A stretch of 63,056 nt of DNA, filler included, from Craspedostauros australis (lineage: Eukaryota): the NCBI GenBank assembly GCA_030167865.1. It is 7 parts of 7 records of this genome, joined end to end, with 100 filler letters (N's around TTAATTAATTAA, not from the genome) between each part and the next. Parts side by side here need not be neighbours in the genome. Positions count along the whole stretch, not along the records: positions 1 to 23,826 come from JALAGF010006400.1; 6 more parts are not named here. One strand, 5' to 3'. The notes beneath the pieces are model-generated. The model did not search any database and was not told where the DNA came from. It saw only the letters and a program-made list of their open reading frames with translations. Position 1 is the stretch's first letter; each line of letters starts with the position of its first letter. Both the position numbers and the translations under genes were made by a program. This document shows positions 1 through 57,630 of this stretch, in pieces.

Positions 1-464
1 TTGATTCCCTCCATGCTGATGACTACTGCACCACTGCCGTGGTCTTAACGCGTGTATCCAACCTGCTTCAACTCAAACAATGGAATCCGAGAGCCAGCTC
101 CAACCACAGCCACTGCTTCATGGTCGTCACTGCCACATGCCATGATCTACACTGCAGTGTATCTACGTATGTGGAGAGCAAGGCGCTGTAATGACTGTAT
201 ACCCTGTAGCACTGAACCAAGTACATCAGTGCAGGGTCTCGCCAAGTTGTGTGNNNNNNNNNNNNNNNNNNNNNNNNNNNNNNNNNNNNNNNNNNNNNNN
301 NNNNNNNNNNNNNNNNNNNNNNNNNNNNNNNNNNNNNNNNNNNNNNNNNNNNAACTCTTCAATCAGTACACCTCTCTTGAACTGCATCACACGGCTATCC
401 CGAAGCTGGCAGATTCAAGAGACATCCTCCACCGATTCGCGCCGACTACGCCCGAATCCTAACT
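1..464 (+). mobile_element. Partial copy of LTR-like family A (left end outside the window; contains an N gap)
   Basis: Colinear and near-identical to the 3' part of 9888-10574, ending in the same terminus CCCGAATCCTAACT at 464. Confidence 0.85.
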
Positions 465-1225: not shown

Positions 1226-1933
1226 ATTTGTTGGCAAGTTCTGGACCTCGGATGCCTACGATCATGGAAGATGGTGTTGGTTGATAGTCATTCGTTTGCT
1301 ATTTCATTAGTTGAGCACTCCAATCCTCTCAGTGTCTCCATTCTCTTGCCCGATTCTCTTGGCACGTTTGTCTGTTTTGTAGATTCGATCGTCCGACTAT
1401 GAGTCAGTGTGCGAGATGCTCTCTCGCTACTCTTTGTATTCTCTCTCTCTCTTGAAATCATGTACTTATGCTACACGATACTCTGCGTTTGATGTGTACT
1501 CTGCATTCAACACTCTGTTTGTTCACTACTGGTTCCTACTCCATGAGTACTTACCATTTGAACTCCTCTTTGTGTATCCATGATCTTGATGTCCTTTGGT
1601 CATCGGATCTTTACCTCCTGCTCTGACATGGAGACAGATGTCAACGTGGTGACATGATGACATCCTGTCAACATCAGTAGGCATCCTTCTGATCTCCAGA
1701 TGTCACATTCCATTGATGATGCGATGGTGTCTCAGATGATATTGTCATCTGGGGTTTGGTTGGGAGGTACATCGAGCTTCGCTTGGTACCATACGTCTCC
1801 ATTGATGGATGGACGGACGATGTTTCTAATTCTCTCAGAAATCGTCGATTGCAAATTTCCTCCAGAAATTCTGCTCATTTTCGTGTGTTCCATTTTCACT
1901 GTAATTCTGACAAATCACAGCATACTATTGACA
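1226..1933 (-). mobile_element. Old degenerate repeat related to LTR-like family B
   Basis: 1226-1610 is the inverted homolog of 15414-15792. ~1620-1830 resembles ~8990-9200 (CACATTCCATyGATGATGC, GGGTTTrGTTGGGAGGTA). Boundaries are approximate and no TSD was found. Confidence 0.55.
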
Positions 1934-2311
1934 CGAATGTAGTTGTACCGTTCAAGTGCGTATGAGAGAATAACGGGTGAACGATGCACCTATACACGTA
2001 CATCTCGACGTATACTCACATGTACATCTCGACATGCGAGTGGCCTGCATACTAGTATATTGCATTATACGAGCTATGTGGACGGAAGAGCTTTGCAGGT
2101 TGCAATGTACTATATGTGCTTCTGTGAAGACGCTATAACATGTATCATATCATATGATGGAGTAAATTGTTCATTCTTCAATCCTCAGACTTTGATGGCA
2201 TCCATTATCTGAGGGTCAAGGATTGCACCACAGTTTGGGAAGAGACCAACATCTGCCTTCATTGCTGCTACAGGAGCTGGATGCACGAGTATCCATACTC
2301 ATTGAATGGTC

Positions 2312-5300
2312 TCATTCAGAGCTCTTCGGCGACTTGCTTGATTTGGATGACTTGGGAGACTTGGTCTTGCTCTCCTTTGATGACTTGTCCGATTTGTATG
2401 ATTTCGCCCCCTTCGTGCTGCGCATGTAAGATGGTTGGGAGGAAGGGAGGAACGACGGCGCGGATGACAGCGCAGATGACGGTGTGAATGACGGTGCAGA
2501 TGACGGCCTAGATGACGGCGCGGAAGACGGCGTGGACGACAGTATCATCGAGTTACCGTTGCAGAATTCCAGTGAACCCATGAAGTACTCAAAGAAACCA
2601 TCGGAGAGAGGAGGATAATCACCGACAACATAGCTCGCAATTCCCGTAAAGATAGTGAATGGACAATCGTCGCAATCAAGCCAGTCTGGAGGGATGGGAA
2701 TGATGGTGTTCGAATATTCATCCCCCGGTCTCGTTGGTGTATCGATGCGGATGGAGATCACGCCGTCGCTTTCGGACACAGCCAAAGGTTGATCGAATGG
2801 AATCACATCTGTGAATTCACCATCACCTCTGGCCTCGATCGTTCCCGATGCAAGTTCTGTCCAATTCCCGGGTGCATCCCACGTACTTGGGCGATAGAAG
2901 ATTGTAAAAGGTTGGTTCCCCGTCGATGGCAGGACAAGCCTCATGCCTGTGATGTCGACACTGTCCAGAATCTGAATGTCGTGTCGCACTGAAGCGGCCC
3001 TGTCGTCATAGAATGCTCTTGGGAGACCTGCTGTTTTTGCTGTTCTTGCATCGAGGCAGGTGTATGTTGGTGCCTGTGTGGGGCCTGCAGATGGCTGGAT
3101 TGATGGCAATGTTGTCGTAGTGGGGGCAGAGGATCCAGTTGGCATCTCGGTGCTCAGATCCGGACAGAATTCGAGGATGCCGAAAAAGACGGGGAAGCGA
3201 TCGCGGAAATTGGGCGGGTTGTTTCCAACTTCGAGGCTTCCTTGTCCGGTGAATACCTCGAATGGGCAGTCTGGGCACTCCATGACGCTCTCTGGGATCA
3301 CAAACGGAGATGACGAGGACAAATCCCTCAACCTGTCGGCCATGTCAATGCGGAAGGATACAATGTCATCATCCGCAGACACCGCCACAGGCTGATCAAA
3401 TACGAAGGAGGGGGAGAAGCCAGACGAGTCCTTTTCCCCGTTGTTTCCTGATGCAATCTGAGTCCAGTCGCCATCGGCATCCCAGGTGCTTGGGCGGAAG
3501 AAGATCGTGTATGGCATGTTGGTGAATTCAGCAGCCACGGAGACCTTGATGGCGGTGAGTTCGACGCTGTCCAGTATGCGAACATCGAATCTGTATGACT
3601 CAATGCGCTGACTATAGCGCAATTCGCTGAGCGAGGTGAACTCCCACGTGCCGCAAAATTCGGTTGGGGCTGATGACAATGATGGTGCCATAGAAACGGA
3701 TGGTGCCGCACTTGGTGATCGACTCAAATCCACTTTTACACTCACCGTCGCACACATGGGTGTGGTCGAGTCATCATCGATGTTGGATACCGAAATAACG
3801 ATCCCATCCAGCAAAGACGACTGGGCATCAATTCTGTACGATGGTTCTGTCAGGCCCAGGATGGCCTCCAGATTAGAGGATTGAGTCTCGGTAGTGCTGT
3901 GGTCTTGTGCCCTTGTCACGAGGACCTGATCCCTGCCCAGTGGAGAATCGGCGTTGAAGCCGATGGCTCTGTTGAAGGCGATGTAGTAGTTCAATTCACT
4001 CTCAGGATCGTCAATTCGGATGATGACGTCGAAGCTGGTGTCAGCGGGGTCATAATCGACCACTCCGCAGAGCCTTCCCTCAAAGTCGATGTCTTGACCT
4101 CCGGTGAGCAATGTGGTCTGATCGGAGTACCACCCCGTCACCCAGCTGTTGGCACCTATGGGTGGTGGAGGGGCAGGCACATGAGTAATGATATTGAAGG
4201 GGTAGGTTTGTGGCATGAGCATGAGGGTGTGAAATGATTTGGCGCGGACGCAAAGAACGAAACGATGGAGAAGGGAATGATTGTTGAGACAGTGTACGTA
4301 GAGTGTCGCATCGCATCGCATTCGTATCGCGTGCGATGAAGCGACAAGACTCCTCCTGCAGCGGAATCATTTGGGCCCTTGCTCTCCACAAGGCGATGGC
4401 GCCGTAGCACTTACCGTTGTACCCTCTCTTATCGGTCAGAGTTTCATTAGAAAATGGACCAAAAATTGGCCTTCCCATCGCGCCGCTGCGGAATAATAGT
4501 CGATGTTGGGGTCGGAATCCATTGACCGGAGGACGTCAACAACGAGGAAGAGAATACACGAAGACGGAGGTTAGATGGGCTTCGAACGAGAAACAGGTTT
4601 CCTCTCATGTGATGACGACCAGAACATGGCAGACGCGTCCACTGTGCTCTCTCCAGAGTTCGATTGTGTGCGTTCTTGCGTCCGATCGTCCATCCGTTGA
4701 CAATGATTGATGCAGCATGTCACAGATCGTATTCAACTCTCTTTCTCTCTGTGCGTGTCTCTGCTGGCGCATTGACTGCGCTTACCTGACATCTCCAGAC
4801 TCTTCCCCATTCCGATTGGAAGGGGCAAGCCCGAAGTTGCGACCGAGGTTGCGGATGAGGAAGTTTAGGTTGGCCGCCCAGTGCGTGCCTGGATACTCTT
4901 CGATACCGTTGTACACGCTGATCTTTTCGGCGGGATAAGCGTACGCTGTGAATCAGTGGTGTGTCAGTTACATCGGCGTGCGCGTTGATCATCGGGAGAG
5001 TTTGATTCGCAGGGAAGAAAGATGGTCTTCCACGATGGAGTGAGGTGGGTTAGATAGGGTATGAGCACGGGTAGAGCTCATCACGATACCAGTGCGTAAT
5101 ATTGATACGGAAGATACGAGTTGCGTGGTTCTTGTCGGCACTTACCGGTCCAACCAGTTCCAAGTGCATCCAACCCGAACGGGACAATGACCAAGAAGAA
5201 ATCAAAGTCATCATAGATCTTGACCTCCTGCTTCAGATATTGCAAAATGAGATTATCAACTGTTGCTGTCTCGAGAGTGGTGGGATCAACATCAGGTGAA

Positions 5301-6244
5301 AACCCAACTGTCAAAATCCCATCATCTGTCCCATTCGTAGGCATGGTGGAGAGCCTCAGCTTGTCAAAAGACATGGCCGCGAACTGGTAGGTGAAGTTGG
5401 GCTGAGCGCCGAAGATCTCGTCTTTGATGAGGGACTTGGGAACTGTGTAGTTGGTTTGGAAGACGACCTGGATGAAGAGGAACTTCTTGTCGCCAGAACC
5501 ACGGACATCAGGAGTGGTCAGAGAACGACCATGTCCATGTCCATGTCCATGTCCATGTCCATCGCTTTGTTCGCTTGGTTGATGATGCTCGATCGTCATG
5601 TCATCGACGGTCGTCAAGTCCGGCAGCTTCAAGGAGAAGTCGGTGACATCGATGATGACATTCTCCAGAAACAACGTGGACTTGGAAGAGGAAAATGGCC
5701 ATGCACGGTTGTTCTTGGCCCATTCCGGCGTCAGCCCTTCGATGGTCAAATGCACAGGCCCATGTTCTTCCTCATCGGAGCCTTGGAGCATGCAAGATAA
5801 GTCAGTTGCATCCGTTCCGTCGGCAGCGCTAATGATCCGTGCCGAGACGAGGCATGGCTCCTGTAGGATACTGTGTTCGCCCGAGGCAGCGTCATGCGTC
5901 TGAATTGAGTTCGATCCGGTTGTTGGTTGTGTGATGAAGGACGAGACACGACGTGATGTGAAGTAATGCGTTGTATTGTATTGTATAATGCAAGGTGCAG
6001 AATCATGGTTGAGTTGAGGATGAGGTCATTGAATTGGATGCACGTACTCGTATGTCTGTGGATGCGGATGCGGCAAGGCGAGAATGCCAGCAAAGAAGGA
6101 ACCCCCACGCGTCGAGACAACAGTGACAGTTGCCATCTTGCTCGTACTCACCGTCAACTTTGGCACCGGGGATGCCGCTGCGGTAGCGGCAAGCGCCACA
6201 AGCAGCACAGCAGCAAGGATTCGTTGGTAGAAGTGAGAATGCAT
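2312..6244 (-). CDS. Secreted peptidase M11 (gametolysin)-like protein, predicted catalytically inactive, with two tandem ~170-aa domains and a Ser/Lys-rich tail; ~973 aa, 5 exons
   Basis: Exons 6244-6152, 5899-5146, 4945-4786, 4485-4415 and 4155-2312, all GT-AG and phase-consistent. Signal peptide MHSHFYQRILAAVLLVALAATAAA. The spliced sequence AYAY..ISVYN..RNLGRNFGLAPS..GDVSGAMG..GYNGANSWVTGWY..YYIAFNRAIGFN follows the M11 motif order. Confidence 0.8.
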
Positions 6245-6866
6245 GGCTTTTTCGTCATCAACGAGATGAAGGATTTATGAGATGATTTGGAGTCCGAGGA
6301 AGGAAGGAACGAACAGAAACAGGAACTGCTGCCATTCCTTCGCCAGCCGCCACCTTCTTTGGTTTTTTGCATGCAGTGAACCATTCCCCTCTTGTGTGGA
6401 GAGGACGAGTAGGTGGATGGGCGGGAAAGCATTTCGTGGAATAGCAGCCAGGCGTACCTACGTCTGTGGGTTGCTGCGCCATGAGCACCCGTACGACAAT
6501 GAGCCGCTCACGCGCATCACGCGTCATGATGTGGTGTTGCCTCTGTGGCCGTTCGCTGGAACCTTGTGTGCCGAGGTTTCCCAGCTCCTTGCACGACTGT
6601 GTGGAGAAGCCACCCCCGACAGCCCGCTCGGGAAGATCCGATCACCGCCAATTTTGTGGAAGAACAGAACAACGTTGTCGTCTTGATGTCGCTCAGGACA
6701 GCCCATTTATGGACCAATCTCGTGTCACACGTTGTCAACGGAACTCGAATTTGTGGCTGGGACAACCTGAGCGCACATGAGTGATTGTGGCAAGTTAACA
6801 CACACATGCTTTGTCATTGAGGGTTGCAAACCCAAAGGATTCAGATGATAAGGGTTATAGGGTCGT

Positions 6867-7555
6867 AGTTAGGATTCGGGCGTAGACGGCGCGAATTGGT
6901 GGAGGATGCCTCTTGGATCTGCCGACTTCGGGATAGCCGTGTGATGCAGTTCAAGAGAGGTGTACTGTTTGAATAGTTGCTACTGTAACGATGAGTAGAA
7001 GAGTGCTTTGTAGCTAATCCTTGTCTGTTTATTATGGGTTGGCTTATGGTGTTGGTGGGGTGAAGAGACGATGCCACACAACTTGGCGAGACCCTGCACT
7101 GATGTACTTGGTTCAGTGCTACAGGGTAGACGATCATTACAGTGCCTTGCTCTCCATACATGTAGACGCACTGCAGTGTAGGTCATGACACTTGATAGTG
7201 ACGGTCATGAAGCAGTGGCTGTGGCTGGAGCTGACCCTCGGATTCCATTGCTTGAGTTGAAGCTGGTTAGATACACACGTCAAGACTACGGCAGTGGTGC
7301 AGTAGTCGTCAGCATAGAGGGAATTGAGGTATGTTGTAGTAAAGAGGATCTGAGGAGCATATAGTTCCCAAAGTGAGGTGTGAGTCAGGTCGGTCATATT
7401 TGAGTCATGATGGATTCGTGAATGGAGGAGAGAAAGGAGGAGAGAAGATTTGGTGGTCAATCAAGTCGAAGGATTTCGCGCCAAAAAAACAAGAATTTCT
7501 CCTATCGAGTTGATACCGTGTCCGGTAATAGTCTGTCCCTCATTGAATCTCAACT
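6867..7555 (-). mobile_element. Solo-LTR-like element, family A (689 bp)
   Basis: Reverse complement of 9888-10574; ends AGTT...AACT; 5-bp TSD GTCGT at 6862-6866 and 7556-7560. Confidence 0.9.
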
Positions 7556-8783
7556 GTCGTGTAGGATCGTCAGAGAGTACACTGTTCTCCCGTGGTTGGG
7601 CGATGCCCGTGTTCGCATGTTAACCCCGTTTTAACCGTTTCACATGCATCCCTGTTTGGTCCCCTCGATTCGCTGTGGCTCTGCTGACTGTCGGATCGTC
7701 ACATTTTCACTTCACATGGTATGTACCTGCTGCATGCCCCATGCGTGGGCACCACAGGGCGCTCATCCCATCCACCACAGATTGAATCCGTGGCCGACCA
7801 TCCTTGGGTACTGTCGTGCAGTCTGTATGTTAGAATAAAACACATTGTGCCTGAGCTGTCCGTCTTGGCCCTGATTGTGGCTTTGTGAGCATGTCAGCGA
7901 GATTGGTCTCTGATGGCTCGTATGAGACAGTCATCACACCCGCTGCGATGCTTTCTTGGACGAAGTGATATGCAATGGCGTTGGCTTTCTTTCGTAGCTG
8001 TGATGCGGGGAGTGAGGCGTTGTAGACGACGCTCTGGTTGTCGACACGCATGTCCGTAGGGCCGTCCATAGGGACGCCCATCATACGCAACTTGTAGCGC
8101 ATACCAATGACGATCTCCGTCGCCACCTTGAGCGCGGTGAACTCGCTGCCGAACGTGGACGTCTCGATGCTGTTTTGTTTCTTGCTGTGCCATTGGATGG
8201 GCAATGAGTTCAAGTACAGTAGGACTCCGGTGCGCGATCGTCGCGTCACCCGGTCGCTGGCATGGTCAGAATCAACGAAGCAAGTCATCTGGACCTCTTT
8301 TCCACGTGGTGTTAGCATGTCACTTGGTATCTGTGAGTGGGCGTCGGCGTAGAAGTCGCCCCACTCCGGTTGTATCACAGCGGGTTTGTCAACGTATGCA
8401 TCATCAAAGACAAGACGAGAACGATCGTGTGAGTTCAAATGGGCAAACATATGGAAGAGCGTCCGCAGGTGACCCGTGCGGGGCGCAGCACAGTATGAGG
8501 ACATCATGGATGTTTCACAGCAGATGTCGATTCGACCCAGTTCAACGGTCCAACGCAGGATCCCAATCATTTGCTGGTAGAATGTCATCTCCTCTGCATC
8601 GCACAACGGTGTTGCATCCAATTCAGGTCGATATCCGTTCGGTATCACACTGAGTGCCCTTGTCTTCAGGCGCCCTTGTCGGTCGGTGAGCCATTTTGTT
8701 ACAACCTTGATGGCAGTTCGTATGTATGCTTGTGATCCCATGCTCCATTTGGGACGTGTTGCATCAGAGTCAATGTGGTATGG

Positions 8784-9312
8784 TGTTATCTAGTTATTGT
8801 ACACAGCAAAATCACACGAGTCTTTCAAGAGAGATCAAGCCTTTCAGGATGATGGTGGTGAGCTGGTGTAGTGAACACACTGATTGGGTTGAGTGACTTC
8901 TGGTTCTATGTTATCTTCACTGAGTTGTATCTCATGATGCTGTCTTCAAGAACAGCTCTCGGTCATTGCACCTCTGCAATCTTGTTCTGATGTGGAGATG
9001 ACCCATGATGTGGCAATGATGTCTCCTGTGTCGACGTCACTCATCACCATTCCATGGCTCTGTCGATTCCACATTCCATCGATGATGCTTGAGGCTGTCA
9101 GAGGTGGTGTCATTTCGGGTTTAGTTGGGAGGTATATAAGGTCGAATTGGACATCACATGTTTGCCGGGTGGTGGCCAGACCGAATCTCTGACGTTCTCT
9201 CTAGTGTTTCCCTTATGCCGAAAATCATGTGTCTGAGGAAAGCATCGTTTCAGCACATACCAGGACAGACTAATCAGAAAACAAATCAGGTGAATAAAGC
9301 AGTGTGCTAATA
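8784..9312 (-). mobile_element. Solo-LTR-like element, family B (529 bp), inserted in the RT
   Basis: 5-bp TSD TATGG at 8779-8783 and 9313-9317. Plus-strand ends TGTTA...TAATA, i.e. TA...CA on the minus strand. Strand assignment is tentative. Confidence 0.85.
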
Positions 9313-9887
9313 TATGGCGCGATAGTGGAGCCAAGGTAAGTAGTAGGAGGGCCGATGGAACTCGGTTTGAGGAAGAAGTGTGAGCCGATTGCATCTAGGA
9401 TGCGCTGGGGTTGTTTGGACACCGCAAAGATGTCGTCTGTATACACAAGCATGTATTCATAATACTCTGACCCATCGCTCGCCACTGTTGGTTTCATCCA
9501 GATGTGGCTATCAGCGCGGCAGGATGTGTATCCCATCGAATCGCGCAGTGTCTCAGCCAGATGCGCTCGCCAAGCGGCTCCGCTGGACTTCAGACCATAC
9601 AAGGCCCGACAGATGACAGCGATCTTGCCTTGATCGGACCTGAACTCGGGCCCGCATCGCGTGTATATTTGTTCTCTGCACAGTGCGTTCAACTATGCGT
9701 TTTGGACGTCGGCAGCCAGTATGTTGAGGTCATTGAGTGCGGCAATCATGAATGCAATGCGCATGCTTTTGCGTGACACCACACTCGCATAGGTGATGGC
9801 CGCTGGTGCCTCTGTCATGTGGCCGCCCACCACCAATCGTGCTTTGCGTGTGAGATCGACTTTCACGGCGAAGATCATGTGGCACTC

Positions 9888-10574
9888 AGTTGAGATTCAA
9901 TAAGGGACAGACTATTACCGGACACGGTATCAATCCAATTGAAGAAATTCTTGTTTTGGCGCGAAATCTTCCGACTTGATCGACCACCAAATCTTTTCTC
10001 CTCCTTTCTCTCCTCCATTCACGAATCCATCATGACTCAAGCATGACCAACCTGACTCACACCTCACCTTGGGAACTATATGCTCCTCAGATCCTCTTAC
10101 TACAACATACCTCGATTCCCTTCATGCTGACGACTACTGCATCAATGCCGTAGTCTCAACGTGTGTATCCAACTTGCTTCAACTCGAACAATGGAATCCG
10201 AGGGTCAGCTCCAGCCACAGCCACTGCTTCATGACTGTCACCAACATGCGTCATGGCCTATACTACAATGTATCTACATGTATGGAGAGCAAGGCACTGT
10301 TATGATCACCTATCTGCAAGCACTGAACCAAGTACATCAGTGCAGGGTCTTGCCAAGTTGTGTGGCATCGTTTCTTCACCCTACTAACACTACAAGCTAA
10401 CTCATAATAAACACAGACAAGGATTAGCTACAAAGCACTCTTCTACTCATCGTTACAGTAACAACTCTTCAAACAGTACACCTCTCTTGAACTGCATCAC
10501 ATGGCTATCCCGAAGCCGGCAGATCCAAGAGACATCTTCCACCGATTCGCGCCGACTACGCCCGAATCCTAACT
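9888..10574 (+). mobile_element. Solo-LTR-like element, family A (687 bp), inserted in the RT
   Basis: 5-bp TSD CACTC at 9883-9887 and 10575-10579; imperfect terminal inverted repeat AGTTGAGATTC / GAATCCTAACT. Confidence 0.92.
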
Positions 10575-28915: not shown

Positions 28916-30871
28916 CTACTCCTTCGCAATGCTCTCCTTCTCGAAGATCATCAAGCACTCGATGTGCCTGGTTTGTGGGAACAGGTCGAAGGGTAGAATC
29001 TTCGTGATCGCATACCCCGCCTTCACGATGCCTTCGGAATCGCGGGCCTGCGTCGTGGGATCGCAGGACATGTAGATGATACGTTGCGGCGCAAAGTCGT
29101 ACAGCTGCTTCAAAAAGTCTTCACTGCAGCCCTTGCGGGGCGGGTCCAACACGATGGCAGTGCGGTCGTTGGGGAAGTCGTCGGACAGAACATCGAAGAT
29201 AGCTTCGGCGGACGCGGCGCGGAATTCGCAGTTGGTGACGTTGTTGCGCTGGGCGTTTTGGGTGGCCTCCTCGATGGCCTGGTTGTTGATCTCGATGCCG
29301 ACGACGGTATCAAAATGTTGCGATGCCGACAATGCGAAGAGGCCGGAGCCGCAGTAGCAATCGGCCAGATGAGTCAATGATGTTCCTTCGGCGGTGGCGG
29401 CGTCGTCGGCATCCTGAGTGGATACCACAGGAGCTGTCGCATACTTCAATACCTGCTCCACCATCAACGGAAGGACGTAGTAGTTGTTTTGAAAGAAGTT
29501 GCCGGCGCGGTATCGAAAGTCCAGCGACCCGACGGTGGTCGTCAGGTATTCGTTGTTGTCGCTTTCGATGTACTCGTCGTTGAGATTGCCCTGGCGGAAC
29601 AGCAAGGTGGCGCCTTTCTTCTTTTTGCCAGGCGGCGGACTGTTCAACAGACTCTCCCGCGCCCTTTCGTACGCCACGTTGACTTCGGGCGTGCCGATGG
29701 GACAGCGCGGGACGTCGACGATCTGGCGCACGCTGGACTTCTGGAAGCCAATCGCCGTGATGACGGGGACATCTGTTGCGAAACTGTGATCGTCGTCGTC
29801 ATCGTTGTCTTTGGTGTCGACGTTCTTGCGTCCTCTGCGACTTTTGGATGGATTCTGATAGTGCGGTGTCAGCTTGGATCGGTACCCGAAGACTTCATCC
29901 GTTCCCAAGCACGGTGACACATGGACATCCGTGATGCCGTACTGCTTCAAGCCATCTTGCACGAAGCGCTGCTTCCAATCGCGCTGCGCGCCGATGCTCA
30001 TGTGCTGCAGTTGGCATCCACCGCAGGTCCCGTAGAGAGAGCACTTCGGTTCGATCCGATCCGGCGATGATTGCAAGACCTGCACGAGATCCGCCTCGCT
30101 GTAATTGTTGAAGTTCCGAAAGATACGCAACCGCACGCGTTCGCCGGGGATGACGCCCGGCACCATGACGACCCAGTTCGTTGTTTGCACGGTGGTCCTG
30201 TCGTCGTCTGCTTCCGTAGACGCCGATGATGAATCGACACTGCTATCATTTGGTGCTGCTATCAGACTGCTCCGCTCTTCTGATTTCTTGCTATCACCGC
30301 CGCCACCACGCGGACGCCGTCCTCCCTTCTTCTTCTTATGAGCATCACGCTGTTCCTGCGTGAATTGAATCGGAACACGAGCAATGCCCATTCCACGATT
30401 CGTGAGAGTCTCAATCTCCACATCGATCTCCTCGTGGTACTCGAATGGGAATGGTATGAATTTGGCTGGTCGTTTGAAGGCAGGTGGCGTCGTTGTTGGT
30501 GCGTCTGTTTCTGTTGTTGCGGCTGGCTGATTGGGGCCATTGGTGATATCTGAACTCTCCGTTGCTGTCATTTGCAATCCTGTCACGTGAAAATGCCGCA
30601 ATGGTGTTGCTGTTGTTGACGTTGGCGTTGTGGGTGTGGGTGTGGATGTGAACAACGATGAAATCATGGATCGCTGCTGCTGCTGCTGTTGCTGGTACTG
30701 ATGCTGTCGGTAAGACGTGATCCAGGCATACGCACCGACCTGCCCGTGCCTGAAGAGCACCGTGGAAAGGAGTAACCTTCCATTGCGTGATGTTGGCATG
30801 CCCAATGACACAGACTGTAGGAAAGATGCGACGCAAGACATGGCCAACACGCACAGAGGTGTGGTTCTCAT
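28916..30871 (-). CDS. TrmA/RlmD-family RNA (uracil-5)-methyltransferase with an N-terminal targeting extension
   Basis: TRAM-like IETLTNRGMGIAR and VIPGERV; CSLYGTCGGCQLQH Fe-S motif; FFQNN, DCYCGSGLF, VLDPPRKG, YMSCDP and FDLFPQTRHIE. First ATG at 30871. Confidence 0.93.
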   Translation of the reverse strand: MRTTPLCVLAMSCVASFLQSVSLGMPTSRNGRLLLSTVLFRHGQVGAYAWITSYRQHQYQQQQQQQRSMISSLFTSTPTPTTPTSTTATPLRHFHVTGLQMTATESSDITNGPNQPAATTETDAPTTTPPAFKRPAKFIPFPFEYHEEIDVEIETLTNRGMGIARVPIQFTQEQRDAHKKKKGGRRPRGGGGDSKKSEERSSLIAAPNDSSVDSSSASTEADDDRTTVQTTNWVVMVPGVIPGERVRLRIFRNFNNYSEADLVQVLQSSPDRIEPKCSLYGTCGGCQLQHMSIGAQRDWKQRFVQDGLKQYGITDVHVSPCLGTDEVFGYRSKLTPHYQNPSKSRRGRKNVDTKDNDDDDDHSFATDVPVITAIGFQKSSVRQIVDVPRCPIGTPEVNVAYERARESLLNSPPPGKKKKGATLLFRQGNLNDEYIESDNNEYLTTTVGSLDFRYRAGNFFQNNYYVLPLMVEQVLKYATAPVVSTQDADDAATAEGTSLTHLADCYCGSGLFALSASQHFDTVVGIEINNQAIEEATQNAQRNNVTNCEFRAASAEAIFDVLSDDFPNDRTAIVLDPPRKGCSEDFLKQLYDFAPQRIIYMSCDPTTQARDSEGIVKAGYAITKILPFDLFPQTRHIECLMIFEKESIAKE

Positions 30872-31741
30872 GATGTACAATTGCGCTTGCAAGTCACTTG
30901 GTTAGCTGCTTGTGAATGATGAAAGAACTGTGCTTGGGAGGATGCCGAAGAGGGTGTGGATGATGATGTCGGCGATCGTGATGTTGACTGTGGTGATAGA
31001 CACGAGTTGATTGATGGCGTATCCTTCCACATTTCTCGTGATGGGTTTTCTTGGTTGGCTGATTGCGTGAAATCAACGAATCCGTATGTATGGACGGACA
31101 ATACTAATGTCTATTAGTTATTGGAGGATTGAGGCAAAATGCATTTATTCATAATAAATATATACCATCCGTGAACACGCGTGTCCACAAAGATCGCTTC
31201 CAAATTCACGTTTACACATTTTGCACAATGAATCATCTTTCCTGTTCTTGAGCCCAAGCAGACAGAAGCAACGGTCCACCAACTCGCTGACCCGAAGACC
31301 ACATCATCACGTCACACGATACCGTTTCGTAGGTGTATCCTTTTGGTTCCTCAAATCTCTTGTTCTCCATCAGCCGAATTGATTCCTCATAAAATCAGAA
31401 ACGAAACCTGTTGGTATACGGTCGAAGGCCAGACGGAGCAGCAAATGAACCCCTGTTCACAGCCTCAGCAGAGACAACAGAGACGAGTCATAATAACTTC
31501 ACATCACACACACACACACACTACTCGTATCGTCTCCCGATCATCACAGGTTATGAGGAAATACGCTTATACTATATAAGACAATCCCCATTGCTTCGTC
31601 ACCCTCTCTGTATTTTGGAAATCCCCATCCAAACGCAGCTCNNNNNNNNNNNNNNNNNNNNNNNNNNNNNNNNNNNNNNNNNNNNTTAATTAATTAANNN
31701 NNNNNNNNNNNNNNNNNNNNNNNNNNNNNNNNNNNNNNNNN

Positions 31742-40499: not shown

Positions 40500-43400
40500 G
40501 TGGATGGGATGGCGATGTCAACGCCGATGCAAAGCCATCAACGTACGAGTGTTGCGATCACGTACCAGACGTTGATCTATGCAACGGCGCATCTCGTCAT
40601 TCAATTGAGACAGAAGATCCGCCAATGCGCGCCGCTTCCTTCATTCGACGAGAACATTCCATCCATCGGTTTGCCCATCGCCGTTGCCATGCCGGAAGGT
40701 CCGCTCCTGCCCCTCGTCATCCTCGCGGTGCATTGTCTCAATCATCCCTTCCGACTTGGGCAACGCGATGGCGCAGCGTACCACGGGCACGCGGTCATGA
40801 TTCCGATCGAGCCCAGCCAAGACGCGAAACAGAGGATCGCGCATATGATGGAGGATTCGAGGCCGTTGCTGGTGCTGTCCACGTCGCAAGGCGGTGCCGA
40901 CTATCAGATTCTCCGATCTATTGTTCATCGTGACGCTGGAAACAGCAATGGCAACGCAGCTGTCGAAGGGCGGATCAAATCAACTTCATCGGCACGTTAC
41001 ATGCCCGCCGAAAAATCACACCTCGTTGACTTGCATCAGTTATGCCAGAGTATACCGTCGATCAATTCAGACATGGAGCATCAGATCAATGATGTCTTTC
41101 GAGTTTATTTGGAATCCAACAAGAAAGGCAAGGCACGCGGCGATCAGATTTCTCTGAAGCTGGCGATCAACTTCCTTGCTGATACATGGGATGATTCAGA
41201 TCGAATGGACAGCAGCAGTGCGTCCACTATCTTGGCAGAAACGCATACGATACCGAACGACATCGCGTCTCGCAATCGGCTTTCGCATATGGTCTACACG
41301 TCCGGCACGACGGGATGGCCAAAGGGTTGCATGTCCTCCATCCAGTCGTTGGACAACTACCTGCGTGCCAAGAACGAAGCGCATTCTGTCACATCCGAAT
41401 CTACAGTTCTGCTGGCAAGTGCGCTGTCCTTCGATCCATGCATGTCCGATGTGTTGGCCACCTTCCTATGCCAAGCGACGCTGGCCATCGCGCCACGGTC
41501 AAGGCTCGTCAGTCACCTCTCACAGATCCTTCGGCAGCTGCACGTCACGCACTTGCTGTGCACGCCGACGTTGTTTCGTTTGGTCCAGGAGCCGCCCGCT
41601 GCGTTTCCGCAATTGAGGACGTTGGCGTTGGGCGGCGAACCCATTCCGGCATCTATCCGGCGTGTTTGGGGAGCGGGCGCAATGGCAACGAGCAAGACGG
41701 AATGTAAGCTGCTCGCCACGTACGGTGTGACGGAAGCATGCGTATATCAAACCATGGGAGAAGTGTGCCATTTGCCATCATTGCCAGCGTCTTTGTCTCA
41801 CGCTCAAGCCGTCACGAGCAATCAAGCGAAGGCTGCGAGGCGGGCCACCGGAAAAGGGTTCGTTGGACTACCGTTCCCAGGCATGCAAGTGCAGATGTGT
41901 GTGGAAGCAATTCAAGACAGAATCGTTGCCGTTGCGCAAGATGATGGTGGCGTTGCCAACGGCCCTGATAGATTCGGGGAGATTGTGCTTTCTGGCAACC
42001 AACTGGATGAATTCTCCGGATACTGGAATCGCGATGACTTGCATCACAAATTCATTTGCGAGACTCAATCTGCTGCAACGCGGTGCTTCTACCGAACAGG
42101 CGACAGGGGGTACATCGACCACGATGGCAGCATCCATGTGATGGGGCGAATCCAAGGCGAGGAAGGCATGATCAAGCATAATGGTGTTCGGATCGAGCTA
42201 AACGAGATCGCTGCGGCCATGGAGGAGTGGCCAGGCACGTCATCAAGCATCGTGCAAGGCTGCGTCGTCGTGGCGCGTACGGTTCCATTGCATCAAGGGT
42301 CCGAACAGAGCGGTGCTTCCCATGACGATGGAGATGGCGACATTGGCAGTGACGACGATACGAAGACAGAAATTCATGCCTACGTCGTGCTCACGGATTC
42401 CTGTCTCCGTAGCATGGGGGTTCGATTCGATTCATCAAGGAAGCAGCCGCCGGCCTATCTCATCAGTCCCAGCCCCCTCTGGACACTACTTCGCGCGGCA
42501 TGCCTGTCCAGGATCAAATCGGCATGTGTGCCGTCGAGCTTCGTGCTGATCTCCCAAATACCACTGTCACCAACGGGCAAGAGAGACAACCGGCAGTTAC
42601 CTCGGTTGCAGGACTGTCTCAAGTTTAACTTTGCCAAGCAAGCCAACAGCGGCATCGGAAACGATACTTGCGACGACGACGAGAACAGCGGTGACGATGA
42701 AGGGAGTACGCCACTGGCAGAATACGGCAACACGGGAAGGCTCGTCGCCGAACAAATCATCGAGTGTCTGAATCTGCAACAGTGCCAACAATCCATGCTC
42801 ACCATCGATGCCAGCTTTGGCATGCTCGGAGGAGACTCCCTGGCCGCGACGCGGATCACGCGTGCCCTGTACGCAATGCATCATAACATCAACAACACTC
42901 GGCATCTCGGTGGAGAATACGGAACATTGGAGGGACCCTTCAATGTTGTTCATATCCTTCGCGCGACGAAGCTGAAGCATTACATCGACATGCTGGATGA
43001 TCATAACGTTTGCAGCCACGCTTGGGATCATGAAAAGCAAAGTGGGACAGCTGATTCCGCGACCCAAACATCATTGCCGTCGCCAATGGCAACCACAGAC
43101 GTTGCATCGCCGCATGACGCCGAACAACAGCGACTGTACGACGCGCTGCTGCAGGCGTGNNNNNNNNNNNNNNNNNNNNNNNNNNNNNNNNNNNNNNNNN
43201 NNNNNNNNNAACATCAACAACACTCGGCATCTCGGTGGAGAATACGGAACATTGGAGGGACCCTTCAATGTTGTTCATATCCTTCGCGCGACGAAGCTGA
43301 AGCATTACATCGACATGCTNNNNNNNNNNNNNNNNNNNNNNNNNNNNNNNNNNNNNNNNNNNNNNNNNNNNNNNNNNNNNNNNNNNNNNNNNNNNNNNNN

Positions 43401-43652
43401 GCCGTCGCCAATGGCAACCACAGACGTTGCATCGCCGCATGACGCCGAACAACAGCGACTGTACGACGCGCTGCTGCAGGCGTGCACCTTGCAACAGACG
43501 GACGTCGCCATCGGACTGCTGCAGTTCGGCGCCGACCCCAACTGGGGTGCGCACGGTGGACGGTTGGGCAAGACCTCCGGCCGCATCGCGCAGAAGCAAA
43601 TCTTCCGATCCAGCCCCCTGCACCTGGCCGCGGCGAAGGGCGATGCGCGTCT
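40500..43652 (+). CDS. NRPS-like protein: adenylation domain, carrier (T) domain, ankyrin repeats; partial at both ends
   Basis: YTSGTTGWPKG, SFDP, YGVTE, YRTGDRG, IKHNGVRIEL and PLSPTGK motifs; phosphopantetheine site LGGDSL; then GADPN and SPLHLAAAKGD. 43210-43483 duplicates earlier sequence across N gaps. Confidence 0.88.
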
Positions 43653-53587: not shown

Positions 53588-55244
53588 AGACGAGAGCATC
53601 GGGGTCACTGAAGTCGCAATGCCAGGGGTCGATGTCAACAATGCGCCACCAGCGCAAGAAGAGGAAGCAACTGGCACTCGCATGAGCAGCGCCATTGACT
53701 ACTTCCTACGTGACAAGATCGACCGCGTATGTGAACGCAGCAGGATGGATGCATGGTGTCCAATCTGCCTCGCGCGTGGAGCGATGTATTCGTGGTGCAC
53801 GGAGTGCACCGAATTCAACGTATTCAAGATCCGAGCCCCATGGGCGTTCAGAAAGATCCCGACGACCACCGAACCGGAAAGNNNNNNNNNNNNNNNNNNN
53901 NNNNNNNNNNNNNNNNNNNNNNNNNNNNNNNNNNNNNNNNNNNNNNNNNNNNNNNNNNNNNNNNNNNNNNNNNNNNNNNNNNNNNNNNNNNTGTGCTACG
54001 ACGTGAGGAGGGAATCCATTCGGGAGAGAGCCTACTGCTTGGGAACCCGAGAGCTCTACTACATGCTCACCCAAATTGGGTTCGAAGGAGCATATGACAT
54101 ATCGCTCAAGATCGTGGTCATCAACGAGCTGCTCGAAGAGAAAGGACTACCACTACTCCCCAAGCACCTCATTTTGAGGATGAGCCGCCTGTGTACCCAA
54201 CGCGTCTCATGGATGAGAGGCTGGGACGACACCGAAGTAAGAGACGGTTTGGAGTGCCCGGAACTCCCAAAGGTCAGACCAATGGCAGGAAGCCCGGAAT
54301 ACAAANNNNNNNNNNNNNNNNNNNNNNNNNNNNNNNNNNNNNNNNNNNNNNNNNNNNNNNNNNNNNNNNNNNNNNNNNNNNNNNNNNNNNNNNNNNNNNN
54401 NNNNNNNNNNNNNNNNNNNNNNNNNNNNNNNNNNNNNNNNNNNNNNNNNNNNNNNNNNNNNNNNNNNNNNNNNNATGAGGGCATGACTAACGTGCGCCTC
54501 TCGAACTTCTCTGTGAAGGTGGGAAGCGGAAAATTCCTCCGCGCCACTAAGGTCGGTGATCTACGCATGCGAGTGATGCAGAAGGATGGCAAGAGCGCCA
54601 TCATCATCCTGAAGGGAGTGCGTTACGTGCCTAAGCTCTNNNNNNNNNNNNNNNNNNNNNNNNNNNNNNNNNNNNNNNNNNNNNNNNNNCGATTCGACTC
54701 AGTGGAGGACGCCGTGAGGGTCTCTCTCTCCAACGTCTTGGAAGCCGTGCAGGTGCGAATCAATGGCGCCATCCTGTGCTACGACGTGAGGAGGGAATCC
54801 ATTCGGGAGAGAGCCTACTGCTTGGGAACCCGAGAGCTCTACTACATGCTCACCCAAATNNNNNNNNNNNNNNNNNNNNNNNNNNNNNNNNNNNNNNNNN
54901 NNNNNNNNNNNNNNNNNNNNNNNNNNNNNNNNNNNNNNNNNNNNNNNNNNNNNNNNNNNNNNNNNNNNNNNNTGTGTACCCAACGCGTCTCATGGATGAG
55001 AGGCTGGGACGACACCGAAGTAAGAGACGGTTTGGAGTGCCCGGAACTCCCAAAGGTCAGACCAATGGCAGGAAGCCCGGAATACAAACTCGAGCTGATG
55101 GAACACTTCGAACAAGCAAGGTTCGGACACGAAATGGCCATGGTGACCGAAGATCACGAATCGAGTGAGAGCAACCGCGAGCTGGTTGCACCAGACCAAC
55201 ATGAAGCTAACACATGGTTGGGGGATACCGGCGCGTCTTGCCAC
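53588..55244 (+). mobile_element. Gappy Ty1/copia polyprotein fragment (extra C4 domain plus protease)
   Basis: WLGDTGASCH protease motif and GVRYVPKL; homologous to 55345-57630. Piece order is scrambled by the assembly. Confidence 0.85.
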
Positions 55245-55344
55245 NNNNNNNNNNNNNNNNNNNNNNNNNNNNNNNNNNNNNNNNNNNNTTAATTAATTAA
55301 NNNNNNNNNNNNNNNNNNNNNNNNNNNNNNNNNNNNNNNNNNNN

Positions 55345-57630
55345 CATGATGCGGTCGAAACGGATACGCAATCCGTTCTTCTCGAGAGCCATCACCACAC
55401 CCTTGTTGCTGATGTCGAATCCGCTTTCAAGTGCCTTTGTGATGCTCAGGAGATTGACCCAAAGCTTGGGGACGAACTTGACCGCCTTGAGGATGATGAT
55501 GACCTCCGAGCCATCCTTCTGCATCACCTTCATGCGTTTGTCGCCCATCTTCGTTGCTTTGAGGTAGCGTCCGCTTCCCACCTTCACTGCGAAGCTCGCG
55601 AGGCGCACGTTCGTCATGCCCTCGTCGCTGTTGGTGAGATGACACGATGCCCCCGAGTCGCCAAGCCAGGTGTTTGCCTCGTGGCGATCTGGCGCGATGG
55701 TCTTCTTGCGTTCGCCGGCGTCGTACATGTCGCCGATCACCATGGCTAGCTCATGCGCATGGTTGTACCCGTAGATGGGCAGCTCGTCGAACATGTGCCC
55801 GTCGCGCACGCCGTTGTTTGATGGATGATGGATCCAAAGCAGGCGATCCGCGGCCATGGCGCTCATACGCGAGATCAGGTTCTTCGGGAGTGGCGGGAGA
55901 CGATTCTCCTCAAGCAAATCGTTGATGTCGATTGCCTTGCTCGCCACNNNNNNNNNNNNNNNNNNNNNNNNNNNNNNNNNNNNNNNNNNNNNNNNNNNNN
56001 NNTCCATGCGGTTCTCGTCGATGCCTTGGTATGCCTCCATCGCGTCATAGCAGATGAGCGAGAGGTCGGAACGAACATCATTCGCAGGTATCACGTTGGA
56101 CAGCGAGCATCTCACCGCATAGGGAGGGTTGTCGCTTGCAAGGATTTGGCGGCGTTGGAGCTTCTCAGCTGGCGTCACAGGCACGTCTCCCTTTGGTCCT
56201 CCTGGGATGAGGATCAAGAATGGGCAGAACGGGCAGTCAACACACCATGAGAACAAAGGCCCTTTGGTCAGGCACAGTGGGCACCACGCGTTGTCGTTGT
56301 CACGCCGAGACGCGGTCTCGATCAATCCGTCCAAGTAGGAGCAGATGGGGCGCACGTTGTAGATCGGCTCTGGTCGCCTTGCTGAGGCCGTCACGTGGAG
56401 ATCGATGCCGGGCATCGCGATCTCGTTGCTTTCGGTTTCGTCAGCTTCGCTCTCATCGGACGAGAACAAATTGTCGCTCATCATGCGATCCGCGTCGACT
56501 TGTGGTCCGTAGTAGCCGTAGTCGTTCGGGCTACGGATCCCAACCACTTCGATCGATTCCTCGTCGTTGTTGTTGTTGGTTCCGTTGTAGAACCCTGCGG
56601 CCAAGTCTCCGTCGACGACCACGAGAGCCATGTCCTCCATGAGGTTTTCGATGTTGCTCTCAGTGTCGTGGGTGCGGGTTGTCACGATTTCGTGGTCGGT
56701 GAGAATTTGTTTTTCGCTCACATTTTGGGTGTTGCGCGCGATTTCTCCATCCTCTGCGATTTCGTGACACAACATCACTTCATCAACGCTGACCAGCGCG
56801 ACGTCGTCCATGCCGTCCATCCCGTCGGTAGCCACATTGGCTGAGTCCACGTCCTTCATCGCTGCTCTCAACTTGAAGCATTGCACGATCTTGTGGCCTG
56901 TCTTGCCACAGAACTTGCACTTGCCGTTGAAGCCTCCGGCGCTGAAGTTGCCGTTGTTGCGGTTGCCGTTGCCGCGGTTGCCGTTCTTCTTGGCGCCACC
57001 GCCTTGCTTGCCGTTGCCGTTCTTGATTGGGGAGCGACAGTCCGCCTTCTTGTGCCCGTAGACGCCACAGTTGCGACAGTTGCCCTTGAACCCGCCGATC
57101 GCGGCCAAGGNNNNNNNNNNNNNNNNNNNNNNNNNNNNNNNNNNNNNNNNNNNNNNNNNNGCCGTTGTTGCGGTTGCCGTTGCCGCGGTTGCCGTTCTTC
57201 TTGGCGCCACCGCCTTGCTTGCCGTTGCCGCTCTTGGTAGGGGAGCGACAGTCCGCCTTCTTGTGCCCGTAGACGCCACAGTTGCGACAGTTGCCCTTGA
57301 ACCCGCCGATCGCGGCCAAGGCCATCTCCTCCTTGCCATGGTTGCCTCCTTCGCGCTTAGAACCATGTTTGGTATGGTGGCGGTCGTAGGTGAGGCACAC
57401 GGCCTCGCGGATGTCCTCAACTGTCATCTTGTCTTCTTTGCCTGCGAACTTGAGCTCTATGAGCTTCACGTCCATCTTGTAGTCTCTTCCGAGAGCGTTG
57501 AGCACAAGCATGTTGTATTGCTCGACGTCCATATTCACGCCAGCATTCTCCAAATGGTTGCGGAGCACCTCCATGTCGGTGAGGAACGAATCAGGGCGCT
57601 CGCCCTTCTTCAACTGCATTCCGTTGAGTT
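55345..57630 (-). mobile_element. Ty1/copia gag-protease region, 5'-truncated
   Basis: Gag (LVLNALGRDY), CCHC knuckles CRNCGVYGHKKADC and CKFCGKTGHKIVQC, an extra domain, then protease WLGDSGASCH..VKFVPKLWVNLLSI. No stops in the visible sequence. Confidence 0.92.

Follow-up and report, generated by a model that had tools for sequence, protein, structure and literature searches.

A probable secreted pseudopeptidase of the gametolysin/M11 family in the diatom Craspedostauros australis

Gene model and family membership

The window analysed here is a 63,056-nt stretch of Craspedostauros australis DNA (GenBank assembly GCA_030167865.1) composed of seven joined parts, the first of which (positions 1–23,826, from JALAGF010006400.1) carries on its minus strand a gene for a divergent homologue of the gametolysin/Peptidase M11 metalloproteases in which all zinc ligands and the catalytic Glu are replaced. 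The gene comprises five GT-AG exons, delimited by three-frame translation and by landmarks at the junctions; all gene coordinates below refer to the minus strand. Exon 1 (6244–6152) provides the ATG and a 31-residue N-terminus with a hydrophobic, signal-peptide-like core (MHSHFYQRILAAVLLVALAATAAAS...), a putative signal peptide judged by eye, and ends at a GTGAGT donor. Exon 2 (5899–5146) encodes the N-terminal half of the M11-like domain along with a pro-region that has the two Cys residues of the family and a Gly-His repeat. Exon 3 (4945–4786), which lies between an acceptor AG and the donor GTAAGC, contributes the AYAY and SVYN segments and the active-site helix region, while exon 4 (4485–4415) carries SGAMG, with the family-invariant Met of the presumed Met-turn, and a 4-residue insertion. 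Exon 5 (4155–2312) begins with the SWVTGWY helix and closes with a TGA stop codon at 2314–2312. The M11-like domain is divergent and spread over four exons.

The four introns measure 200–300 nt, begin with GTGAGT, GTAAGT, GTAAGC and GTAAGT (GTRAGY) and end with CAG or TAG. Joining the exons by their coordinates yields a coding sequence of 2922 nt, corresponding to 973 codons plus TGA, without a single internal stop, a state reached by none of 2000 shuffles. The gene contains no N, the closest run of these being located at 254–352. An earlier sequence-only reading had proposed five exons with a stop-free frame of 973 codons, a feature at 4786–4945 (exon 3 here) and an altered active-site motif at 4853–4821, and the splice borders and codons agree with each of these points.

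The M11 ancestry of the protein emerges from several comparisons. A word-index protein search with exon 5, restricted to near lengths, returned one match among 8000 scored candidates, a 960-residue protein of Cylindrotheca fusiformis (P0001) with precomputed PF05548 and PT-repeat annotations, which is the sole named relative and is also matched by exon 2 in BLASTP. The corresponding searches with exon 2 at longer lengths and with residues 1–170 of exon 5 gave none among 1569 and 702 candidates, respectively. When 1.84 billion representatives were searched exhaustively with phmmer, exon-5 residues 1–531 matched 301 proteins at E ≤ 1e-3, five of them at 1e-10 and none at 1e-30; among the best 150 of the 301, every top stretch falls within query residues 1–188. 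A family profile was built from the 31 near-full-length relatives, 30 of which match PF05548 at E ≤ 0.001. Exon 2 aligns by hhalign with columns 38–256 of this profile (probability 97.9%, E 6.4e-13) and exon 3 with columns 262–305 (probability 90%, E 1.7e-6), the latter alignment placing RNLGRNFGLAP on HEiGHNLgLxH and remaining collinear on both sides of the motif. Similarly, residues 166–527 of the spliced protein form one collinear stretch in phmmer with a relative that itself matches PF05548 at 1.8e-16 (P0003; 107.5 bits), and likewise with dozens more. Because exons 2 and 3 match consecutive, collinear profile columns and the spliced protein aligns as one stretch, the gene model is sound, as is the descent from M11. 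The proposed gametolysin/M11-like identity is confirmed in this way, although the intended check against Pfam Peptidase_M11 succeeded only through the profile of relatives and not for the exons searched separately. The protein belongs to the PF05548 homologous family, as judged through relatives that match it.

The collinear region shared with P0001 and the M11 family extends over the pro-region, the catalytic-domain scaffold, the invariant Met, the SWxxGWY helix and the post-catalytic β domain. A signal-peptide-like N-terminus and a Pro/Ser/Thr-rich region following the protease-like part are further common features. In contrast, identity amounts to only ~30%, and the C. australis protein adds two orphan β-sandwich repeats and a Lys/Ser-rich tail. 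It also differs from the family in having RNxxRxxGxxP where the other members display HExxHxxGxxH, in the absence of four conserved Cys residues and in the presence of a 7-residue and a 4-residue insertion.

Replacement of the catalytic residues

The motif RNLGRNFGLAP is encoded at 4853–4821 by the codons CGC AAC CTC GGT CGC AAC TTC GGG CTT GCC CCT. In a MAFFT alignment of the window protein with 59 rows of homologues (from 58 proteins) that extend to the motif, Arg-314, Asn-315, Arg-318 and Pro-324 stand at the columns of the first His, the Glu, the second His and the third His, and these columns are occupied by H/E/H/H in 30 of 30 active homologues, as the sequence-only reading had anticipated in stating that all zinc ligands and the catalytic Glu were replaced. 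The catalytic state H-E-H-H is found in 49 of the 59 rows. Eight rows are unclassifiable, being fragments that lack the N-terminus, begin at the motif or immediately ahead of it and still have its last two His. The two degenerate rows (R-T-M-T and H-A-H-H) both belong to a single protein, P0004. The Gly of the motif is retained in the window protein and the residues interspersed between the lost ligands (L, G, N, F, G, L, A and S) are those of the family. Met-339 of SGAMG falls in a column that is Met in 30 of 30 homologues, its adjacent Gly being equally invariant, and we take it to be the structural Met-turn known from metzincins. The same alignment bears out the retention of AYAY, SVYN, the SGAMG Met and SWxTGWY.

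Metzincins require three His and one Glu. With all zinc ligands and the general-base Glu replaced, and given this established chemistry, the window protein is predicted neither to hold a catalytic zinc nor to cleave peptides by the metzincin mechanism. An alternative exon supplying HExxH, which had been named as the finding that would overturn this view, is excluded because none of the six frames of 1500–7500 contains H[ED]xxH; the extended motif is absent from the whole window. The codons of RNLG and RNFG at 4831–4853 constitute a 12-nt near-tandem duplicate (CGCAACCTCGGT / CGCAACTTCGGG; TRF score 39). The His and the Glu might have been altered together by a micro-conversion, but this is indistinguishable from chance because the ancestral HExG/HNxG arrangement is already periodic.

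The extent of change beyond the motif was assessed over 61 columns that are at least 80% identical among the 30 active homologues (4 catalytic, 4 Cys and 53 other). The window protein keeps none of the four catalytic residues, none of the four Cys and 40 of the 53 other residues, while active members keep 42–52 of these 53, a range that is inflated because the active members themselves defined the column set. The difference between catalytic and other columns is significant (Fisher p 0.006), and more so when catalytic and Cys columns are combined (7e-5). Judged from the aligned sequences, the losses are concentrated on the catalytic and disulfide positions of a fast-evolving copy. The proposal that the substitutions are confined to the active site of an otherwise intact gene does not hold, as the four Cys and 13 of the 53 other conserved positions are altered as well, insertions of 7 and 4 residues are present and the protein occupies the longest branch of the family tree. 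The protein nevertheless appears to combine the retained homologous fold with the lost catalytic residues that define a pseudoenzyme.

The protein with the two degenerate rows, P0004, is an unnamed 848-residue member of the representative library that carries two M11-like domains in tandem, the active sites of both being degenerate. Domain 1 reads R-T-M-T and keeps none of the four catalytic residues, none of the four Cys and 37 of the 53 other columns; domain 2 reads H-A-H-H, the Glu being replaced by Ala. Domain 1 therefore resembles the window protein in lacking the four catalytic residues and the four Cys and in replacing the first His by Arg, and the two proteins have in common the xNSxxTGWY variant of the helix. 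In contrast, P0004 contains two M11-like domains and neither the C-terminal repeats nor the Lys/Ser-rich tail. A clade uniting the two proteins was not recovered in the tree, while their union is compatible with the approximately unbiased (AU) test (p 0.173), so that both shared and independent loss are possible. P0004 is a candidate second M11 pseudopeptidase. Orthologues with the same four substitutions had been expected if the gene is maintained; none that is close was found, and domain 1 of P0004 shares only the His-to-Arg change of the first ligand.

Accessory regions of the protein

Immediately before the RSL site of the pro-region, a (CCATGT)5.7 microsatellite (5529–5562; 100% matches in TRF) encodes GHGHGHGHGHG. 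This Gly-His segment could be a metal-binding tract or merely slippage-prone DNA. Downstream of the catalytic scaffold, the SWVTGWY helix and the post-catalytic β domain (3650–4155; residues 361–528) occupy the start of exon 5. The AlphaFold2 (AF2) model of this domain, based on 36 sequences, is confident, with a predicted local distance difference test score (pLDDT) of 86.5 and a predicted template modelling score (pTM) of 0.79. In VIA-align the M6 immune inhibitor A2 zymogen (4yu5_A) ranks first, with Z 10.6 and a root-mean-square deviation of 3.0 over 134 aligned residues, the next match having Z 7.0. Because 4yu5_A is clearly first, a domain of this type evidently lies behind the catalytic domain in a second metzincin family as well, and on the strength of the model the M11 accessory domain resembles that of M6, which suggests a structural link between the two.

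Two C-terminal repeats of ~180 residues follow, located at 3673–3128 (repeat 1, with four Cys and the pattern CPDCPF...EFC) and 3088–2549 (repeat 2), and they are 43% identical to one another (E 2e-43). The repeats have no Pfam match, nor are they reached by any of the best 150 of the 301 matches of the exhaustive phmmer search. The AF2 model of repeat 1, built from a 2-sequence alignment, is a β-sandwich of low confidence (pLDDT 59.7, pTM 0.62), in contrast to the post-catalytic domain. The repeat 1 model matches PHR domains at Z 8.7–8.9, a lectin-like domain at Z 7.1 and many CBM6/32/35 modules at Z 5–6.7, values of 7–9 being common for β-sandwiches. For both the post-catalytic and the repeat 1 model, Foldseek found no match in the PDB at E ≤ 0.001. 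The predicted fold suggests that the C-terminal repeats are binding modules, and no more than that.

The C-terminus is completed by a Pro/Ser-rich spacer (2423–2548), which is encoded by a tandem repeat of 12/24/36 nt and aligns with the PT-repeat region of P0001, and by a Lys/Ser-rich tail (2315–2422) in which a regular-expression search located four overlapping matches to K..K..K.{1,2}K..K at residues 941–970. This penta-lysine pattern is given in bioRxiv 10.1101/2021.09.18.460806 for 29% of silica-associated proteins versus 1.5% of the background. The putative signal peptide and the penta-lysine cluster together provide the combination that characterizes silaffin-like proteins, the signal peptide being recognized by eye only. 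The window protein thus resembles the silaffin-type biosilica proteins in its putative signal peptide and its Lys/Ser stretch matching K..K..K.{1,2}K..K. In contrast, no sequence similarity to them extends beyond the motif.

Proposed role, alternatives and surroundings

These features are consistent with an extracellular non-catalytic protein of the cell wall, acting in binding or as a scaffold. The protein would enter the secretory pathway, where its M11-derived domain, lacking zinc and water activation, would serve as a binding surface with two Arg residues placed in the old metal site, within the former substrate cleft. The two CBM/PHR-like β-sandwich repeats would bind wall polymers or proteins and add valency, while the Pro/Ser spacer and the penta-lysine tail of the silaffin-targeting type would anchor the protein in the silica wall (frustule). 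The non-catalytic role put forward in the sequence-only reading is compatible with this architecture of putative signal peptide, β-sandwich repeats, Pro/Ser spacer and penta-lysine tail. We estimate a probability of about 0.6 that the gene is real, intact and spliced and that its product, a secreted relative of gametolysin/Peptidase M11 devoid of catalytic activity, functions as a pseudopeptidase.

A distinctly possible, if less probable, alternative is that the copy no longer matters to the cell, being either a unitary pseudogene of recent origin or a paralogue that can be dispensed with and evolves under relaxed constraint, and that its open frame survives only because little time has elapsed. 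A number of observations weigh against a functional pseudopeptidase with a wall role, and several of them point towards drift. The end branch of the window protein is the longest in an IQ-TREE phylogeny of 33 rows from which the motif columns had been left out (2.6 versus a median of 0.88), its placement being without support. Two of the lost Cys residues are invariant in 30 of 30 active homologues and the other two are present in 24–25 of 30. No orthologue with close similarity was found in the protein collections searched or in two metagenome scans; in the latter, a protein-pattern scan of the contigs matched 15 stretches, none of which was confirmed by tblastn, and a degenerate DNA pattern of the dead motif had no match. 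The best phmmer match reaches 66.6 bits at 36% identity, and the four exon translations searched separately against Pfam matched no family at E ≤ 1. The repeat 1 model on which a binding function would rest is of low confidence, with Z scores that β-sandwiches commonly reach, and the penta-lysine pattern is present in 1.5% of background proteins as well, according to the same preprint.

The contigs of run X1, which cover only 2276–2458, 2502–3040 and 3186–3374 and leave 3396–6400 uncovered without any joint, add a further point of the same kind. A 580-nt contig placed on 2502–3040, within repeat 2, is ~91% identical to the window, with 48 differences and an in-frame insertion of 3 nt. Among 40 of 57 differences listed, 34 codons change, 25 of them non-synonymously and 9 synonymously, which is about the neutral expectation; the contig may be allelic or paralogous, or may come from another species. 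The surroundings of the gene are also rich in repeats. A repeat of ~0.6–0.7 kb is present in three copies that are 83–96% alike (3–464, plus strand; 6867–7556, minus strand; 9887–10574, plus strand), and the inverted copies at 3–464 and 6867–7556 (88–95% matching) bracket the M11-like gene. Two open frames of the window (53619–55292, plus strand, and 55297–57420, minus strand) are retroelement remains and count in the same direction. Redundant copies are moreover to be expected where M11 genes number 17–50, as stated for Pseudo-nitzschia in PMC11499653.

Against drift stands the selective nature of the changes. At least five nucleotide changes have accumulated in the 12 catalytic bases, and yet the frame of 2922 nt contains neither a stop nor a frameshift, and the splice sites of all four introns still conform to the consensus. 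The 40 of 53 scaffold positions that are kept argue in the same sense, as neutral decay would strike the scaffold as often as the catalytic residues. Between repeats 1 and 2 the proportion of synonymous differences (pS) is 0.83 over 173 codons and the proportion of non-synonymous differences (pN) is 0.395. Since pS is saturated while pN is moderate, the repeats appear to have been under long-term constraint at the protein level, their amino acids being conserved despite saturated synonymous sites. The evidence is at the same time compatible with a very recent loss following a long spell as a working pseudoenzyme.

A second alternative, which we count within the functional pseudopeptidase interpretation and regard as an unlikely special case of it, is that the protein acts without catalysis on active M11 paralogues, as a regulator or decoy that binds their substrates, pro-domains or inhibitors. 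The retained scaffold of the substrate cleft and the retained pro-region are in line with such a function, pseudopeptidases often regulate their active relatives according to PMC11266112, and many active paralogues are indicated for related diatoms in PMC11499653. In contrast, tblastn detects no M11 paralogue within the window, and the binding-type repeats and the silica-targeting-type tail point to a localization in the wall, with which a decoy function would also be compatible.

The Volvox metalloproteinase VMP3 is reported, in work attributed to Heitzer and Hallmann in 2002, to be a QEXXH enzyme that is active with copper. Like the window protein, VMP3 is an algal extracellular protein of the M11 type with a non-canonical metal-binding motif; it differs in that one ligand is changed and activity persists, whereas in the window protein three ligands and the Glu are replaced. 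Even with this precedent and with the Gly-His repeat upstream of the domain, it is very improbable that the window protein remains a hydrolase through other residues or another metal site, since three ligands and the Glu are all gone (Arg, Asn, Arg and Pro) and not a single one, or that an artefact of the gene model hides an intact HExxH, since no such motif was found in the frames searched and exon 3 follows the family profile collinearly on either side of it.

The functional pseudopeptidase interpretation can be extended, as a speculation to which we would give a low probability, to a maintained class of diatom wall proteins with dead M11 domains that would include the window protein and P0004. 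Its members would be united by the His-to-Arg change of the first ligand, the loss of the four scaffold Cys and the NSxxTGWY variant of the helix. The former zinc site would have turned into an Arg-lined pocket for anionic wall components, among them silica, phosphorylated silaffins and sulfated or acidic polysaccharides. The penta-lysine tail would deliver the protein to the frustule, where the two β-sandwich modules, not described before, would provide cross-linking.

As any large enzyme family can be expected to contain pseudoenzymes and M11 has undergone strong expansion in some diatoms, a dead M11 copy is in itself no surprise. Non-peptidase homologues are catalogued for the families in MEROPS. 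Pseudopeptidases are well known among metallopeptidase families, as outlined in PMC11266112, and an extracellular-matrix role has been proposed for the fungal M14 pseudoenzyme Ecm14 in PMC7706225. Ecm14 resembles the window protein in being an extracellular zinc-peptidase homologue predicted to be inactive (PMC7706225 and PMC11266112), but it belongs to another clan and fold, an M14 carboxypeptidase as opposed to a metzincin M11. Expansion of the M11 genes is reported to have given three species of Pseudo-nitzschia 17, 50 and 33 copies (PMC11499653), and dead copies are therefore expected. A term search of the text of the pseudopeptidase review PMC11266112 returned neither gametolysin nor M11, the string 'M11' being present only within digital object identifiers. 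Among the papers listed by a literature search on gametolysin and inactive peptidase homologues, none mentions gametolysin, no M11 pseudopeptidase came to light in the literature searched, and no paper pairing 'Peptidase_M11' with diatoms was found. If expressed, the window protein would be, going by the literature searched, the first M11 pseudopeptidase described, and a candidate frustule-associated scaffold in which a protease-derived binding module is joined to a silica-targeting tail. It would then offer a concrete target for diatom cell-wall biology.

Several other features of the window accompany the gene. At 2276–2458, short X1 contigs match the Lys/Ser-rich tail and the first 36 nt past the stop codon with 0–4 differences and a high summed depth, while repeat 2, upstream of the tail, matches X1 at only ~91%; the tail may be shared among paralogues. 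The inverted repeat copies at 6867–7556 and 9887–10574 bracket a second interval, 7557–9886, which contains a 303-residue open frame (7830–8741, minus strand) with no Pfam match. The frames at 53619–55292 and 55297–57420 carry Pol polyprotein β-barrel and zinc-knuckle domains, in a stretch rich in runs of N. Two further long open frames encode a protein with tRNA (uracil-5)-methyltransferase/TRAM domains (28916–30892, minus strand) and one with an AMP-binding enzyme domain (40500–43442, plus strand), and appear to be ordinary housekeeping neighbours.

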